Under the pieces are notes generated by a model, which ran no database searches, was not told where the DNA came from, and worked only from the letters and a program-made list of their open reading frames with translations. Positions 1 to 5,649 of a stretch of DNA of 8,206 nucleotides are shown in pieces (position 1 is the first letter of the stretch; every line of letters begins with the position of its first letter). A program made the position numbers and the translations under genes. The DNA comes from a virus (lineage: Duplodnaviria > Heunggongvirae > Uroviricota > Caudoviricetes), in IMG/VR virus record IMGVR_UViG_2585427776_000003; one strand, given 5' to 3'.

Positions 1-759
1 GCGCAGCGCGATGACTGGCTGAAGAAAGAGATACAGCGCGTATACGATGAAAATCACAAGGTATACGGTGTGCGTAAAGTCTGGCGTCAGTTGTTACGGG
101 AAGGTATCAGAGTGGCCAGATGCACTGTGGCACGTCTCATGGCGGTTATGGGACTTGCCGGTGTTCTCCGGGGTAAAAAGGTCCGTACGACCATCAGCCG
201 GAAAGCCGTTGTCGCAGGCGACCGCGTAAACCGTCAGTTCGTGGCAGAACGACCTGACCAGCTGTGGGTGGCTGATTTTACTTACGTCAGCACATGGCGG
301 GGCTTCGTCTATGTGGCGTTCATCATTGATGTGTTTGCCGGATACATCGTGGGGTGGCGGGTCTCATCGTCCATGGAAACGACATTCGTGCTGGATGCAC
401 TGGAGCAGGCGTTATGGGCCCGTCGACCGTCCGGCACGGTCCATCACAGTGATAAAGGTTCTCAGTATGTATCGCTGGCCTACACACAGCGGCTTAAGGA
501 AGCCGGATTACTGGCATCAACAGGAAGTACAGGCGACTCGTATGACAACGCGATGGCGGAGAGCATCAATGGTCTTTACAAAGCGGAGGTAATACACCGT
601 AAGAGCTGGAAAAACCGTGCAGAAGTGGAACTGGCCACACTCACGTGGGTGGACTGGTATAACAATCGACGATTGCTGGAAAGGCTGGGCCATACTCCTC
701 CGGCAGAAGCAGAAAAAGCTTATTATGCTTCCATCGGAAACGATGATCTGGCAGCCTGA
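1..759 (+). CDS. IS3-family transposase OrfB (DDE/rve integrase domain), 5'-partial, IS629-like
   Basis: Frame 1 is open from the window edge (AQRDDWLKKEIQRVYDENHKVYG...) to TGA at 757-759. DDE signature seen: WVADFTYV, HHSDKGSQY and YDNAMAESINGLYKAE with the conserved K/R downstream of E. The 70..759 ORF in the track is this gene with a spurious internal GTG start. Confidence 0.93.
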   Translation, partial: AQRDDWLKKEIQRVYDENHKVYGVRKVWRQLLREGIRVARCTVARLMAVMGLAGVLRGKKVRTTISRKAVVAGDRVNRQFVAERPDQLWVADFTYVSTWRGFVYVAFIIDVFAGYIVGWRVSSSMETTFVLDALEQALWARRPSGTVHHSDKGSQYVSLAYTQRLKEAGLLASTGSTGDSYDNAMAESINGLYKAEVIHRKSWKNRAEVELATLTWVDWYNNRRLLERLGHTPPAEAEKAYYASIGNDDLAA

Positions 760-801
760 GTTCACAGATAAAACACTCTCCAGGAAACCCGGGGCGGTTC
801 A
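1..801 (+). mobile_element. IS3-family insertion sequence, right-hand portion (IS629/IS1203-like); left end lies upstream of the window
   Basis: The orfB transposase frame is open from nt 1 to the stop at 757-759. The following 42 bp end in AACCCGGGGCGGTTCA at 801 (reverse complement TGAACCGCCCCGGG, which I recall as the IS629-type terminal motif). NinB-like coding sequence resumes in frame directly after 801. The left inverted repeat is outside the window, so the repeat pair cannot be confirmed here. Confidence 0.7.
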
Positions 802-1202
802 GTCAGCAGCTCCAGCCTTATCTGGAGGACGGCAAGTGCTTCCGCATGGTACTGAAGCCATGGCGCGATAAGCGCAGCCTGTCTCAAAATAGCTTAAGCC
901 ACATGTGGTACACCGAAATCAGCGAATACCTCATCAGCCGGGGTAAGACTTTCGCTACGCCAGAGTGGGTGAAGGATGCTCTGAAACACACTTATCTCGG
1001 TTATGAAACCAAAGAACTGGTTGATGTCGTAACCGGTGATATCACCACTATCCAGTCGTTACGCCATACCTCCGATCTTGATACCGGAGAGATGTATGTC
1101 TTCCTGTGTAAGGTTGAAGCCTGGGCGATGAATATTGGTTGCCACCTGACTATTCCGCAGCGCTGCGAGTTCCAGCTGCTGCGCGACAAGCAGGAGGCGT
1201 AA
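802..1202 (+). pseudogene. ybcN: NinB-family recombination protein (YbcN-like), 5' end removed by the IS insertion; residual ORF from ATG 846
   Basis: Frame 3 is open from 747 to TAA 1200-1202 but has no ATG/GTG/TTG before ATG 846. Translated QQLQPYLEDGKCFRMVLKPWRDKRSLSQN aligns by eye with lambda NinB ...VQQILPDPTKPIVVTIQERNRSLDQN, which lies about 20-40 residues into NinB. The native N-terminus should therefore lie upstream of 802, where the sequence is IS-derived. Confidence 0.7.
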
Positions 1203-1372
1203 TGGCTACACCGCTTATTCGTGTCATGAACGGACACATCTACAAAGTACCAAATCGTCGTAAGCGTAAACCTGAGCTGAAGCCATCCGAAATACCAACT
1301 CTGCTCGGATATACCGCCAGCCTGGTTGATAAAAAATGGTTGCGACTGGCAGCAAGGAGGAATCATGGCTGA
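1202..1372 (+). CDS. ninE: NinE-family protein (56 aa)
   Basis: ATG at 1202 overlaps the ybcN stop (TAATG) and is preceded by CAGGAGG at 1191-1197. Product MATPLIRVMNGHIYKVPNRRKRKPELK... is basic, like lambda NinE. The track ORF 1139..1372 is the same frame with an upstream alternative start. Confidence 0.85.
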   Translation: MATPLIRVMNGHIYKVPNRRKRKPELKPSEIPTLLGYTASLVDKKWLRLAARRNHG

Positions 1373-1655
1373 TTTGAGAAAAGCAGCGCGTGGTCGGGAA
1401 TGCCAGGTAAGAATCCCTGGCGTATGTAATGGCAATTCTGAAACGTCTGTACTGGCACATATCCGGCTGGCTGGATTGTGCGGTACCGGTATCAAACCGC
1501 CAGACCTGATTGCCACCATTGCATGTTCTGCCTGCCACGACGAAATCGACCGCCGCACACATTTTGTCGATGCTGCATATGCAAAAGAATGCGCGCTGGA
1601 AGGTATGGCGAGAACACAGGTTATCTGGCTGAAAGAGGGGGTTATTAAGGCGTGA
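1365..1655 (+). CDS. ybcO: YbcO-like protein (DUF1364, Cys/His-rich putative nuclease), 96 aa
   Basis: ATG at 1365 is preceded by AGGAGG at 1355-1360 and overlaps the ninE 3' end by 8 nt. Product [23 protein letters not shown]...CSACHDEID carries Cys/His clusters. The track ORF 1326..1655 is the same frame. Confidence 0.85.
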
Positions 1656-2014
1656 ATACCTACAGCATCACATTACCCTGGCCTCCGAGCAATAATCGCT
1701 ATTACCGCCATAATCGCGGGCGCACGCACATCAGCGCAGAAGGGCAGGCATACCGCGATAACGTCACCCGAATCATTAAAAACGCAATGCTGGATATCGG
1801 CCTGGCTATGCCAGTGAAAATCCGTATTGAGTGCCACATGCCGGATCGCCGTCGCCGTGACCTGGATAATCTGCAAAAAGCCGCTTTTGACGCACTCACC
1901 AAAGCAGGTTTCTGGCTGGATGATGCTCAGGTCGTTGATTACCGCGTTGTGAAGATGCCTGTTACCAAAGGTGGGAGGCTGGAACTGACCATCACCGAAA
2001 TGGGGAATGAATGA
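1652..2014 (+). CDS. rusA: RusA Holliday-junction resolvase (120 aa)
   Basis: GTG start at 1652 overlaps the ybcO stop (GTGA). Product [24 protein letters not shown]...[28 protein letters not shown] matches the RusA family, including the acidic catalytic region. Confidence 0.9.
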
Positions 2015-2151
2015 TGTTTGAGTTTTATATGGCAGAACTTCTTCGCCACCGCTGGGGGCATCTGCGCTTATATCGTTTCCCCGGTTCTGTTTTGACCGAT
2101 TACCGAATACTGAAGAATTACGCCAAAACCCTGACAGGAGCAGGAGTATGA
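2011..2151 (+). CDS. ylcG: small protein YlcG-like (46 aa)
   Basis: ATG at 2011 overlaps the rusA stop (ATGA). Translation is [46 protein letters not shown]. It is below the 60-aa cut-off of the ORF track but sits at the conserved position between rusA and Q. Confidence 0.6.
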
Positions 2152-2236
2152 AGTCAGAGATAACAATCAACTAATACTGTTTTGTTGATTTTTGCTTGTA
2201 ATTGGCGTTCTGGTCTGATTTTTGTGGAGTAAGTTG

Positions 2237-2620
2237 ATGCGTGATATTCAGATGGTTCTTGAGCGTTGGGGAGCGTGGGCGGCTAATAATCATGAAGATG
2301 TGACCTGGTCGTCCATTGCCGCCGGTTTTAAGGGATTAATTACTTCAAAAGTAAAATCTCGCCCGCAATGTTGTGACGATGACGCGATGATTATTTGCGG
2401 GTGCATGGCCCGTCTGAAAAAGAACAACAGCGATTTGCACGATTTATTAGTAGATTATTATGTAGTCGGTATGACATTCATGTCACTGGCAGGTAAGCAT
2501 TGCTGCTCTGATGGTTATATCGGGAAAAGGTTACAGAAGGCTGAGGGCATAATTGAAGGGATGTTAATGGCATTAGATATCCGGTTAGAGATGGATATCG
2601 TTGTTAATAACTCTAATTAA
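2237..2620 (+). CDS. quuD: late-gene antiterminator Q-like protein (127 aa)
   Basis: ATG at 2237 with GGAG at 2226-2229 (7-nt spacing). Product [22 protein letters not shown]... has a Cys-rich segment ([16 protein letters not shown]...HCCSDG) and sits at the Q position immediately upstream of the late region. The track ORF starts at an upstream TTG (2222). Confidence 0.85.
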
Positions 2621-2653
2621 TATGCCAATTGTTTACTAAAAATTATTAAAAAT

Positions 2654-2671
2654 GGGGCGTTGCAACGCCCC
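2654..2671. repeat. perfect 18-bp palindrome GGGGCGTTGCAACGCCCC; followed on the minus strand by a U-rich tract (candidate leftward intrinsic terminator or protein-binding site)
   Basis: Read directly: the sequence equals its own reverse complement. The minus-strand RNA would be hairpin + AUUUUUAAUAAUUUUU; the plus-strand RNA has no U-tract after it. Confidence 0.6.
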
Positions 2672-2759
2672 CAAAAATAAAGGGTAATATATAACAGAAG
2701 GTTTATATAGTTAGAAGCAAGGTTGTGCTCCTAAAGGAAGTGGCTTGAGGGAGCCACTT

Positions 2760-2798
2760 ATATGTTGGGGAGGCAAAGCCTCCCGCAACATATCTTTT
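2760..2798 (+). terminator. candidate rho-independent terminator (tR'-like) downstream of Q
   Basis: 15-bp stem ATATGTTGGGGAGGC / GCCTCCC-g-CAACATAT with AAA loop and one bulge, followed by CTTTT. A second 8-bp hairpin (AAGTGGCT...AGCCACTT, 2738-2759) lies just upstream. Located about 140-180 bp after the quuD stop and just past the nmpC stop on the other strand. Confidence 0.55.
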
Positions 2799-2808
2799 AG
2801 TAATCAAA

Positions 2809-3891
2809 TTAGAACTGGTAAACCATACCTACAGCAACGATATCATCGGTAGCAACGCCAGATGCTTTCGTGAAATCGCTCTTATCAATCAGGTTGATTT
2901 TGTAATCAACAAAAGTGGACATATTTTTGTTGAAGTAATAGGTTGCACCTACATCAATATATTCAACCAGGTCCTGATCACCCCACGCACCCAAGTCTTT
3001 TCCTTTAGATTGCAGGTAAGCAACGGACGGACGCAGACCGAAGTCGAACTGATATTGTGCAACTACTTCGAAGTTTTGTGCTTTGTTGGCAATATGGTTA
3101 TTACCAAAAACAGTCATGTTCTGGGTTTCAGAATAGGTGGTAGCCAGATAGATGTTGTTCGCATCATATTTCAGACCAGCTGCCCATACTTCAGCATTTT
3201 GACCAGATGCATTCAGGCTGTTGTTACCGTAGATAACCTGATTATTAGTGCGGTCAGATTTAGCATAGGTTGCACCTACACCGAATCCTTCATACTCATA
3301 AGTAGTGGAGAAACCGAAACCATCACCATTAGCTTCAGTTACGTCAGTGCGGTCATTTTTACCCTGATACTGAGCAGCAAAGTTCAGACCATCAACCAGA
3401 CCAAAGAAGTCGTTGTTACGATAAGTTGCAACACCAGTGGTGCGACCAGTCATGAACACATCTGTTTGGGTCCAGGTATCGCCACCGAATTCTGGCAGAA
3501 CGTCAGTCCACGCACCGATGTCATATGCTACACCGTAGTTACGGCCGTAATCGATTGAGCCGTAGTCCCCGAATTTCAGGCCTGCAAATGCAAGACGGGT
3601 TTTGTCTTTGGAGGAGCCTTGAGATTCAGCGCGGTTGCCTTTGAATTCATATTCCCACTGACCGAAACCAGTCAGTTGATCGTTGATTTGGGTTTCACCT
3701 TTGAAGCCAAGACGGGCATAAGTAGTATCACCATCATCTGCATCATTAGAGGAGAAGTAGTGCTTGGCATTAACTTTCCCATATAGATCCAGCTTGTTAC
3801 TGTCTTTATTATAAATTTCAGCTGCCTGAGCAGACATCGCCATCAGTACTGATGCAGCTACAGCAGAAATTGCCACTGTTAATTTTTTCAT
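2809..3891 (-). CDS. nmpC: OmpC/OmpF/PhoE-family general porin (NmpC/OmpD-like), apparently intact
   Basis: Signal peptide [23 protein letters not shown], then mature N-terminus [17 protein letters not shown]. Aromatic/Gly-rich beta-barrel pattern and C-terminus ...GMVYQF with the terminal Phe typical of OMP barrels. Start taken at ATG 3891 (complement); the track ORF to 3951 adds 20 unlikely residues. Confidence 0.93.
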
Positions 3892-4478
3892 CGTGAGCCC
3901 TTTTTTTGAACTATTATTAAAAAATGATGTCACTGCGCGATAAATATTCATCTAATCAATGTGATTATTTCAAGATGTAAGTTTTAGTTTCTCATTTAAT
4001 TTGTGAAGTAGATCTCTATTTTTATCTGAACTTTTTCTATCGAAACCTATTTGTGGCTCTTATTTGAACAAAAGTAAACCTATTAGCTAATTTATATTAA
4101 TAGTTGTTATTTATGGAGGCTCTATAATTCGGCAGTTTAATTTAAATCAACTAAAAATAACGCCTGAAATTATTTATTGGTTATTTGTTGAGGTTTTCTT
4201 ATGTATTTGTGGTGGTGTTTTGAACACTCGGTAGCATTCTCATAAATATCATTCAGTGGTTTACGTACGTAAAAAATTGGTTATGCTGTTAAGAGTGGTT
4301 ACTTCGTCACACAGCTTAAACCCGCCGTCGAGCTGGTTTTTCCATTTTCTGAGTCTCGATATTAGCTGATAACTCAATACCTGAGTTATTCACTGACTCC
4401 GAGTCTGTTACGTTTCTGCTTTTTTGCGATACGTTGTATTCCCTCAATTTACACCCGCTTTGTCTGCGAGGTGGGGTT
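3892..4478. promoter_or_regulatory. AT-rich intergenic region (~590 bp) upstream of nmpC on the minus strand and upstream of the lysis cassette on the plus strand; promoter(s) not resolved
   Basis: Visibly AT-rich with many A/T runs (3900-4260 especially) and no convincing ORF. The minus strand contains GGTTTACTTTTGTTCAAATAAG (plus-strand complement around 4059-4080), which resembles OmpR-box half-sites of porin promoters. Confidence 0.4.
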
Positions 4479-4694
4479 ATGAAATCCATGGATAAGTTAA
4501 CAACGGGTGTCGCCTATGGCACCTCAGCAGGTAGTGCCGGTTACTGGTTTTTACAGCTGCTCGATAAAGTCACGCCCTCACAGTGGGCAGCAATAGGTGT
4601 GCTGGGTAGCCTGGTATTTGGCCTGCTGACGTACCTGACAAACCTTTATTTCAAGATTAAAGAAGATAAGCGCAAGGCTGCGAGAGGTGAATAA
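4479..4694 (+). CDS. essD: class II holin of the phage-21 S21 pinholin type, dual-start (antiholin from Met1, holin from Met4)
   Basis: ATG AAA TCC ATG GAT gives MKSMDK. Two hydrophobic segments ([18 protein letters not shown] and [18 protein letters not shown]) and a basic C-tail [11 protein letters not shown]. The track ORF from 4434 adds an upstream in-frame ATG. Confidence 0.9.
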
Positions 4695-5191
4695 TGCCTC
4701 CATCATTACGAAAAGCCGTTGCTGCTGCTATTGGTGGCGGAGCAATTGCTATAGCATCAGTGTTAATCACTGGCCCAAGTGGTAACGATGGTCTGGAAGG
4801 TGTCAGCTACATACCATACAAAGATATTGTTGGTGTATGGACTGTATGTCACGGGCATACAGGAAAAGACATCATGCTCGGTAAAACGTATACCAAAGCA
4901 GAATGCAAAGCCCTCCTGAATAAAGACCTTGCCACGGTCGCCAGACAAATTAACCCGTACATAAAAGTTGATATACCGGAAACAACGCGCGGCGCTCTTT
5001 ACTCGTTCGTTTACAACGTGGGCGCTGGCAATTTCAGAACATCGACGCTTCTTCGCAAAATAAACCAGGGCGATATCAAAGGCGCATGTGATCAGCTACG
5101 TCGCTGGACATATGCTGGCGGTAAGCAATGGAAAGGTCTCATGACTCGTCGTGAGATTGAGCGTGAAATCTGTTTGTGGGGTCAGCAATGA
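4694..5191 (+). CDS. rrrD: SAR endolysin (T4-lysozyme-fold muramidase, phage 21 R21 / P1 Lyz type)
   Basis: ATG at 4694 overlaps the essD stop (TAATG). N-terminal Gly/Ala-rich weakly hydrophobic SAR segment [20 protein letters not shown], followed by the catalytic triad positions E35, D44, T50 (GLEG...KDIVGVWTV). Confidence 0.93.
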
Positions 5192-5649
5192 ACAGAGTAA
5201 CCGCGATTATCTCCGCTCTGGTTATCTGCATCATCGTCTGCCTGTCATGGGCTGTTAATCATTACCGTGATAACGCCATTACCTACAAAGCCCAGCGCGA
5301 CAAAAATGCCAGAGAACTGAAGCTGGCGAACGCGGCAATTACTGACATGCAGATGCGCCAGCGTGATGTTGCTGCACTGGATGAAAAATACACGAAGGAG
5401 TTAGCTAATGCGAAAGCTGAAAATGATGCTCTGCGTGATGATGTTGCCGCTGGTCGTCGTCGGTTGCACATCAAAGCAGTCTGTCAGTCAGTGCGTGAAG
5501 CCACCACCGCCTCCGGCGTGGATAATGCAGCCTCCCCCCGACTGGCAGACACCGCTGAACGGGATTATTTCACCCTCAGAGAGAGGCTGATCACTATGCA
5601 AAAACAACTGGAAGGAACCCAGAAGTATATTAATGAGCAGTGCAGATAG
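5188..5649 (+). CDS. rzpD: Rz inner-membrane spanin (i-spanin)
   Basis: ATG at 5188 overlaps the rrrD stop (ATGA). N-terminal TM segment [18 protein letters not shown], then a coiled-coil-like, charge-rich periplasmic domain ending ...INEQCR. Confidence 0.9.
5408..5590 (+). CDS. rzoD: Rz1 outer-membrane lipoprotein spanin (o-spanin), embedded in the +1 frame of Rz
   Basis: Strong SD AAGGAG 7 nt upstream of ATG 5408. Lipoprotein signal [20 protein letters not shown] with lipobox VVGC, and a Pro-rich mature part ([15 protein letters not shown]). Lies wholly inside rzpD. Confidence 0.85.

Follow-up and report, generated by a model that had tools for sequence, protein, structure and literature searches.

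The window, that is, the whole stretch of 8,206 nucleotides analysed here, begins inside an insertion sequence and passes from it directly into a prophage gene, and all features described below lie on the plus strand. Positions 1..801 hold the 3' 801 bp of an IS629-group element of the IS3 family (IS nt 510-1310 of 1310), as assigned by identity with a full copy. A 1310-bp element of E. coli WP8-S17-ESBL-12 (L012, 692-2001) ends in 801 nt that match these bases at 100% identity. Window base 1 therefore corresponds to IS nt 510, and by the same alignment the remaining 509 bp of IS629 lie upstream of it. The copy that is identical over the 801 bp, 1310 bp long in full, is annotated with a programmed frameshift. 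Frame 1 is open from base 1 up to the TGA at 757-759, and its translation gives the C-terminal 252 codons of the transposase OrfB plus the stop (1..759), with HTH_21 and DDE/rve domains recognized by Pfam and NCBIfam. Against the NCBIfam model NF033516 (transpos_IS3, cut-off 160 bits), the 252 residues scored 282.7 bits (E 5e-84) over model positions 130-369 of 369, covering the C-terminal two-thirds of this IS3-family transposase model, while Pfam returned rve (97.6 bits, 5.9e-28), HTH_21 (66.1 bits, 3.3e-18) and rve_3.

The right terminal inverted repeat (TCTCCAGGAAACCCGGGGCGGTTCA) occupies 777..801 and ends in CA-3', as is typical of the IS3 family; its final bases, ...GGCGGTTCA, close at 801, and it agrees at 23 of 25 positions with the left inverted repeat taken from the identical full copy (L012). 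Four aligned full copies with four different flanks share the common end point ...CCCGGGGCGGTTCA, which places the right terminus of the IS exactly at 801. The sequence-only reading of this DNA had put both boundaries where we find them, with a transposase frame running from the window edge to 759 and an element ending at 801; the opposing case that it named, an IS end at or before about 760 with a native start codon upstream of 846, fails with this terminus.

Directly after the element lies the remnant of ybcN (802..1202), which extends from nt 56 of the 456-nt gene through the stop that ends at nt 456, is identical to positions 3001-3401 of locus L001, and shows no mismatch with the corresponding part of the intact ybcN of strain 504239. 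The IS is positioned between ybcN nt 55 and 56, in codon 19, and the first 55 nt, amounting to 18 codons plus 1 nt, are absent from the remnant; the N-terminal loss had been estimated at about 20 codons, slightly more than this exact extent. In strain 504239, the gene has 456 nt, encodes 151 aa and begins with a GTG that has a GGAGG 5 nt upstream and lies in a 4-nt overlap with the stop of the 33-codon ylcH, and the insertion costs ybcN this native start, the well-spaced GGAGG and the overlap with the ylcH stop. Within the window, the translated ybcN frame is open back into the IS end (747..845), from a stop at 744-746 inside the element, and contains no ATG, GTG or TTG before ATG 846. The sole ORF with a canonical start in this frame (846..1202) encodes 118 aa and begins at Met34 of the 151-aa YbcN, with the nearest GGAGG ending 17 nt upstream, which makes for a poorly spaced Shine-Dalgarno sequence. 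An ATA lies in frame at 768-770, and its equivalent serves as the PGAP 'start' in strain CRE287 (L002, 3768). A scan of the plus strand from 600 to 1600 for sigma-70-like promoters returned no site.

The first residue of the RSLSQN motif is residue 10 of the 118-aa ORF and residue 43 of intact YbcN, and the motif of lambda NinB begins at R41. The earlier description of ATG 846 as the only start, 9 residues ahead of an R-S-L-x-Q-N motif that in lambda NinB is preceded by about 40 residues, is accurate in each part. Beyond ybcN, the genes ninE, ybcO, rusA, ylcG and quuD (1202..2620), identified from ORFs, colinear loci and Pfam labels, follow intact and in the same orientation as the IS; rusA encodes a Holliday-junction resolvase and quuD is an antiterminator gene. 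The prophage early region of IS-free relatives contains a cI-like repressor gene, O, P, a PRTase-like gene, a NADAR gene and ylcH. IS629 interrupts the 5' end of ybcN, as exact matches to known sequences demonstrate, and the arrangement is no chance pattern.

Identity and host range of the element

The designation of the element as IS629-like and of the IS3 family, first proposed from the letters of the sequence, is borne out by the transposase model match and by two GenBank Stx-phage records (LC567824 and LC567828) that are 99.5% identical over the 801 bp and carry the label 'IS3 family IS629 / IS629 transposase OrfB'. A plasmid copy at 99.4% identity is named IS629 family by PGAP, and the name IS629 as used here rests on near-identity to such depositor and PGAP labels. 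The copies of O157, which PGAP names IS1203, are 95.6-95.9% identical to the window element, and the chromosomal copy of O55:H7 CB9615 is 94.1% identical. This gap agrees with the description of three IS629 subtypes that lie 4-5% apart, IS1203 and IS3411 being isoforms (Rump et al. 2011, PMC3271280).

Copies with at least 99% identity occur in 1541 records, among them ESBL isolates from wastewater, strains of avian and extraintestinal origin, and plasmids, and an IS629-group copy that spans at least 80% of the query is present in 3071 of the 5426 complete E. coli genomes. Judged by these sequence comparisons, the window's IS629 type is widespread and is no marker of a STEC/O157 host. The hint of a STEC/O157 background that had been drawn from the element is not supported, given the very diverse E. 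coli in which its closest copies are found and the lower identity of the O157 IS1203. The companion statement, that IS629 is not K-12-like, is correct, as K-12 has no copy of IS629 (bioRxiv 10.1101/2023.06.07.543989).

Native YbcN and the 118-residue product

Homologues of YbcN are 151 aa long, with 100% query coverage and identity down to 62%, and are present in Escherichia, Salmonella, Klebsiella, Citrobacter, Enterobacter, Cronobacter, Pantoea and Phytobacter. An alignment of homologues (n=18) shows nearly invariant N-terminal residues G7, L10, H11, N14, F15, G19, L26, G29 and R33, and in the same alignment position 34 is Met in E. coli alleles only and Leu elsewhere, so Met34 is not a conserved internal start. 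The NCBIfam model PRK09741 (cut-off 164 bits) matched the intact protein with 277.9 bits over residues 1-151 (E 2e-83) and the 118-aa ORF with 214.2 bits over 34-151; PHROG 72 'NinB/Orf' (E 4.7e-53) gave 180.6 bits for the intact protein versus 150.8 bits for the truncated one. The K-12 protein, moreover, was cloned and studied in its 151-aa form, with ssDNA and SSB binding (Curtis et al. 2014, PMC4118853). Based on homologue lengths, the conserved N-terminus, model coverage and the biochemically studied form, native YbcN is the 151-aa protein. The sequence-only reading had named intact orthologues of 118 aa beginning at MVLKPW as an outcome that would overturn it; the curated orthologues have 151 aa and a conserved N-terminus.

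Had the 118-aa ORF from ATG 846 been a genuine, functional short YbcN, the insertion would lie outside the real gene, upstream of it. Gene callers do give exactly this 118-aa protein on several contigs without the IS, and it is deposited in nr as a 118-aa product titled 'MAG TPA: protein NinB [Caudoviricetes sp.]' (DAZ28842.1). However, the IS-free contigs with this call have lost 4 nt from the 5' part of ybcN, a frameshift that forces the short call, and the public 118-aa calls come from frameshifted or interrupted copies of the gene. Conservation at the protein level extends to the 33 upstream residues in eight genera, Met34 is replaced by Leu in most homologues, the PRK09741 and PHROG 72 models both cover the N-terminus of YbcN, and ATG 846 has no well-spaced Shine-Dalgarno sequence. 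A functional short form is thus very improbable, and this reading of YbcN is effectively refuted.

The N-terminal beta1-alpha1-beta2 (RAGNYA) segment of Orf has been described as part of the dimer interface (Curtis et al. 2014, PMC4118853). A product initiated at ATG 846, lacking the first 33 residues and with them the beta1-alpha1-beta2 module, is probably dead. We infer that ybcN::IS629 is a null allele, because the dimer-interface module is gone, no well-spaced ribosome-binding site is left and no promoter-like site lies upstream.

The relation of YbcN to lambda NinB is real but distant. The Pfam NinB model (PF05772) scored 20.5 bits for the truncated and 20.7 bits for the intact protein, both below its cut-off of 23.8, and searches of PDB sequences, both with one YbcN sequence and with a YbcN profile, returned nothing. 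An hhalign comparison of the YbcN alignment with lambda NinB gave an E of 0.17, colinear from residue 11/13, in which RSLSQN of YbcN pairs with RSLDQN (R41-N46) of lambda NinB, the R-x-L-x-Q-N channel motif being kept. When the AlphaFold model of a 151-aa orthologue (pLDDT 86.2) was compared with known structures in Foldseek, 1PC6 supplied the top two PDB matches, with weak scores (E 6e-3, probability 1.0, TM 0.42-0.47). YbcN has been described as a highly diverged member of the Orf family, about 16% identical and classed apart from PF05772 (Curtis et al. 2014, PMC4118853). The earlier assignment to the 'NinB family' therefore stands in a wide sense, through the motif, the colinearity and PHROG 72, but not by the PF05772 threshold, the proper family being PRK09741/YbcN.

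These results bear on annotation. In CRE287, PGAP reports a 148-aa 'YbcN family protein', a fused CDS that starts at the ATA inside the IS end. Both this fused CDS and the 118-aa 'NinB' or 'YbcN family' calls should be treated as pseudogenes.

The junction and the far side of the element

The exact IS/ybcN junction is present, base for base, in two independent ENA metagenome assemblies (L008 and L009; ERZ27294788 and ERZ27280846), the contig L009 beginning inside IS629, and the junction is thus no artefact of one assembly. The same right junction had 0 matches in GTDB representative genomes, IMG/VR and JGI metagenomes, and it was found neither in the 5426 complete E. coli genomes nor in the phage collection; in view of its absence from those complete genomes, it constitutes a rare lineage marker. 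IS copies are classic misassembly sites, and L008 has a chimeric look in the DNA that precedes the final 57 bp of the IS, both of which would suit an assembly chimera in the window's source. Such a chimera is nevertheless extremely improbable, given that the junction is identical to the base in the two other assemblies and that the break coincides exactly with the canonical end of the IS.

We consider it very probable that an insertion of IS629 into ybcN of a DLP12-like prophage knocked the gene out. In this process, IS629 (IS3 family, 1310 bp, copy-out-paste-in) would have transposed into ybcN codon 19, between nt 55 and 56, and its target would have been the gene for YbcN, an Orf/NinB-like recombination mediator of a DLP12-like defective lambdoid E. 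coli prophage. If the event was a simple insertion, one would expect, about 0.5 kb upstream of the window, a 5' fragment of 55 nt together with a duplication of 3-4 bp (GTC or GTCA), with ylcH and the NADAR gene preceding them. The left joint is predicted to read ...GGTAACTTCACCGCTATCGGTC(A) / TGAACCGCCCCGGGAATCC..., that is, ...CACCGCTATCGGTC(A) would be joined directly to TGAACCGCCCCGGG. IS629 is known to generate 3-4 bp duplications at targets of no strict sequence (Rump et al. 2011, PMC3271280), and the related copies carry TAT (L012) and TCAT (CRE287). A pattern scan for the predicted left junction, AACTTCACCGCTATCGG-N(0-6)-TGAACCGCCCCGGG, gave 0 matches in JGI metagenomes and GTDB genomes, and no collection searched contained the left end of the window's IS, its target duplication or the 5' fragment of ybcN. 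We regard a simple insertion, with the 5' fragment on the far side, as the probable arrangement.

Alternatively, the IS may mark the boundary of a deletion or rearrangement that removed the 5' end of ybcN and may have taken the entire left arm of the prophage with it, either by IS-mediated adjacent deletion or by recombination between two IS629 copies; no ybcN would then lie beyond the IS. A precedent exists in strain Z1323PEC0008 (L010), in which an IS of the same type adjoins ybcN at about nt 157, with the ybcN remnant on its right and, on its left, intD beside an HTH remnant. This state is an IS-associated deletion, which makes a deletion boundary possible for the window IS as well, and adjacent deletions by IS629 are known (PMC9330008). 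In L008, the last 57 bp of IS629 are joined to DNA of a different locus, known from E. coli 042 and 55989, which could reflect recombination between IS copies; however, L008 may be a plain chimeric metagenome assembly. Against a boundary also stand CRE287 (NZ_CP166757), in which an IS of the same type and orientation forms a clean simple insertion 12 bp further upstream with the ybcN 5' fragment and ylcH kept, and the IS-free contigs matching the window (L004-L007), which retain ylcH, NADAR, the PRTase-like gene, P and O upstream. Weighing these points, we consider a deletion boundary with loss of the ybcN 5' end rather unlikely, and a simple insertion more likely.

The contig L008 was itself weighed as evidence for what lies beyond the IS and was set aside. 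No more than the terminal 57 bp of the IS are present on it, and E. coli 042 and 55989 have this tail and the DNA upstream of it as one unit at another locus, which points to a chimera or to IS-IS recombination.

With regard to the genes downstream, we infer that the IS cuts ninE-ybcO-rusA-ylcG-quuD off from the prophage early promoter, and their expression would need read-through from the IS or antiterminated transcription. Read-out from IS629 might even activate silent downstream genes, especially rusA, by analogy with the IS2 and IS10 suppressors of ruv in K-12, in which either IS upstream of rusA in DLP12 activates the gene (PMC1636454). The IS is co-oriented with ninE-ybcO-rusA, and a scan of the plus strand from 600 to 2200 returned no terminator-like site. 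Yet the insertion lies about 850 bp upstream of rusA, the scan detected no outward sigma-70-like promoter at the IS end, and no outward promoter of IS629 was reported in the literature examined. Because no outward promoter was found, activation of rusA appears improbable.

A four-nucleotide deletion in IS-free relatives

Four IS-free metagenome contigs (L004-L007), drawn from distinct samples and from assemblies of different names (ERZ27287510, ERR13242974, ERZ4567306 and ERZ28615053), encode the same 118-aa product. In their ybcN, CGCTA[TCGG]TCAGCAG is changed to CGCTATCAGCAG by a 4-nt deletion that shifts the frame, and the Prodigal call that had suggested a native 118-aa form on these contigs was rejected, the contigs being frameshifted. 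The deletion abuts the 801/802 junction of the window and is flanked by TC..TC microhomology. From 803 to about 4800 the contigs match the window without a single difference; beyond that they differ at 3-6 sites. They show no other indel in 7.4 kb and still carry the ybcN 5' end and the upstream genes. The closest intact allele among complete genomes, that of strain 504239, differs from the window already at 2427, and the 4-nt deletion was found in no complete E. coli genome searched. An insertion of the IS into the deletion allele was rejected, as window G802 is missing from that allele.

We see about even chances that the deletion is the scar of an imprecise, IEE-type excision of IS629 from the window's own insertion, guided by TC microhomology. 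With a GTC duplication, the TC of TATCGG would join the TC of the right-hand GTC, removing 1317 bp and yielding exactly the observed sequence. Published work offers a framework for such an event: one model for the loss of copy-out-paste-in IS elements is joining at microhomologies of 2-4 bp (bioRxiv 10.1101/2023.06.07.543989), and in IEE-promoted IS629 excision of type (a) the IS is lost together with 1-7 flanking bp (PMC9330008). Independent slippage between the two TC dinucleotides remains as the alternative. That the only indel in 7.4 kb should fall within a few bases of the junction has a chance of about 1 in 1000, a coincidence that favours, but does not prove, descent of the deletion allele from the occupied one. 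A scar, if that is what it is, would imply that the 5' end of ybcN was still present in the occupied ancestor, in support of a simple insertion.

If excision did occur, gut E. coli populations keep one and the same IS site in empty, occupied and scarred form, all on a single prophage haplotype. The locus would then offer a case of natural imprecise IS629 loss, and small frameshifts in prophage genes could be the footprints of a departed IS. The possible scar in these sister sequences is a modest curiosity. As an event, the insertion is an ordinary knock-out of a cryptic-prophage gene by IS629, of a kind already known; its value lies mostly in annotation hygiene and strain typing, with no bearing on an open biological question.

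Comparison with known systems

The window element is the same as the IS629 of O157:H7 and STEC prophages in its length of 1310 bp, its TG...CA ends and its orfA/orfB programmed frameshift, as judged from the identical full copies. It also shares their prophage location, 62% of the O157 copies being situated in prophages (PMC3271280). It differs from them in its distance from the IS1203 subtype and in an insertion site that is missing from the complete E. coli genomes. The insertion in CRE287 resembles that of the window in IS type, orientation and location in the ybcN 5' end, whereas the two differ in an insertion point 12 bp apart, in a ybcN allele that is about 89% identical, and in the upstream neighbourhood; by reason of these three differences, they are independent events.

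The rus-1 and rus-2 alleles of K-12 DLP12 (IS2 and IS10) likewise place an IS in the same nin-region operon, upstream of rusA and co-oriented with it (PMC1636454). Unlike the window IS, which has no detected outward promoter, they are known activators of rusA and belong to other IS families. The 4-nt deletion in the IS-free contigs resembles IEE type (a) excision in lying at the junction and in having a size within the published range (PMC9330008; bioRxiv 10.1101/2023.06.07.543989), with the distinction that its descent from the occupied allele is putative. As for the interrupted protein, it is diverged from lambda Orf and scores below the Pfam NinB threshold, and the window copy lacks the first 18 codons. 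Like lambda Orf (1PC6) and the YbcN of DLP12, however, this PRK09741 orthologue carries the R-S-L-x-Q-N channel motif and occupies the nin-region position.

Repeated IS629-type insertions in the 5' part of ybcN

The small gene ybcN has been hit by three independent IS629-type insertions, each co-oriented with it and none lying beyond its first ~160 nt: at nt ~46 in E. coli CRE287, at nt 55 in the window, and at nt ~157 in E. coli Z1323PEC0008. IS629 may have a local preference for the 5' part of ybcN, a reading based on tiny numbers (two of 5,426 complete genomes, plus the window). The PGAP annotation of CRE287 includes a 'YbcN family protein' of 148 aa at L002 3768-4214, which corresponds to window 768-1202; its start codon is an ATA within the right end of IS629. 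This CDS is an annotation artefact, in which IS-derived codons are fused onto a truncated ybcN.

Variants at the IS junction

In the four IS-free metagenome contigs sharing the haplotype of the window (L004-L007), ybcN carries a 4-nt deletion, TCGG, located exactly at the IS junction of the window (798-803; L004 5780-5790, L005 9953-9963, and 4636-4646 in both L006 and L007). The deletion is flanked by TC..TC, it was found in none of the complete E. coli genomes, and it may represent the scar of an imprecise IS629 excision. In a further metagenome contig, L008, the truncated ybcN is joined to just the last 57 bp of IS629 (2545-3195). The identical 57-bp tail, together with identical upstream DNA, occurs at another place in E. 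coli strains including 042 and 55989, adjoining a type I restriction-enzyme remnant. Either L008 was assembled chimerically, or it arose by recombination between IS629 remnants.

Rearrangement and prophage state in relatives

In E. coli strain 504239, the closest relative with an intact ybcN, the ybcO-to-rrrD segment is inverted with respect to the window (L001 3564-4160 versus window 1365-5190), and both ybcO and rrrD are left as truncated pseudogenes at the break points. In the IS-free relatives (L004 13417-16162), the gene for a terminase-A-like product of 405 residues, with GpA_ATPase and GpA_nuclease matches, is directly followed by tail-fibre and tail-fibre-assembly genes. Gene calling placed neither head nor tail-shaft genes between the terminase-A-like and tail-fibre genes in this interval, which suggests that the prophage of these relatives is defective.

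Porin and lysis genes compared with known lambdoid loci

An intact OmpC/NmpC-like porin gene (window 2809-3951, minus strand; 360 aa, beginning MKKLTVAIS) lies between the lysis cassette and the antiterminator gene quuD. At the corresponding place, ~400 bp downstream of quuD, the K-12-like DLP12 locus (L003) instead carries an annotated IS5 transposase gene. On the plus strand, the spanin pair consists of an Rz-like gene (5176-5649) and, nested inside it in a different frame, a 60-aa Rz1-like lipoprotein ORF (5408-5590), the same layout as the classic lambdoid arrangement.
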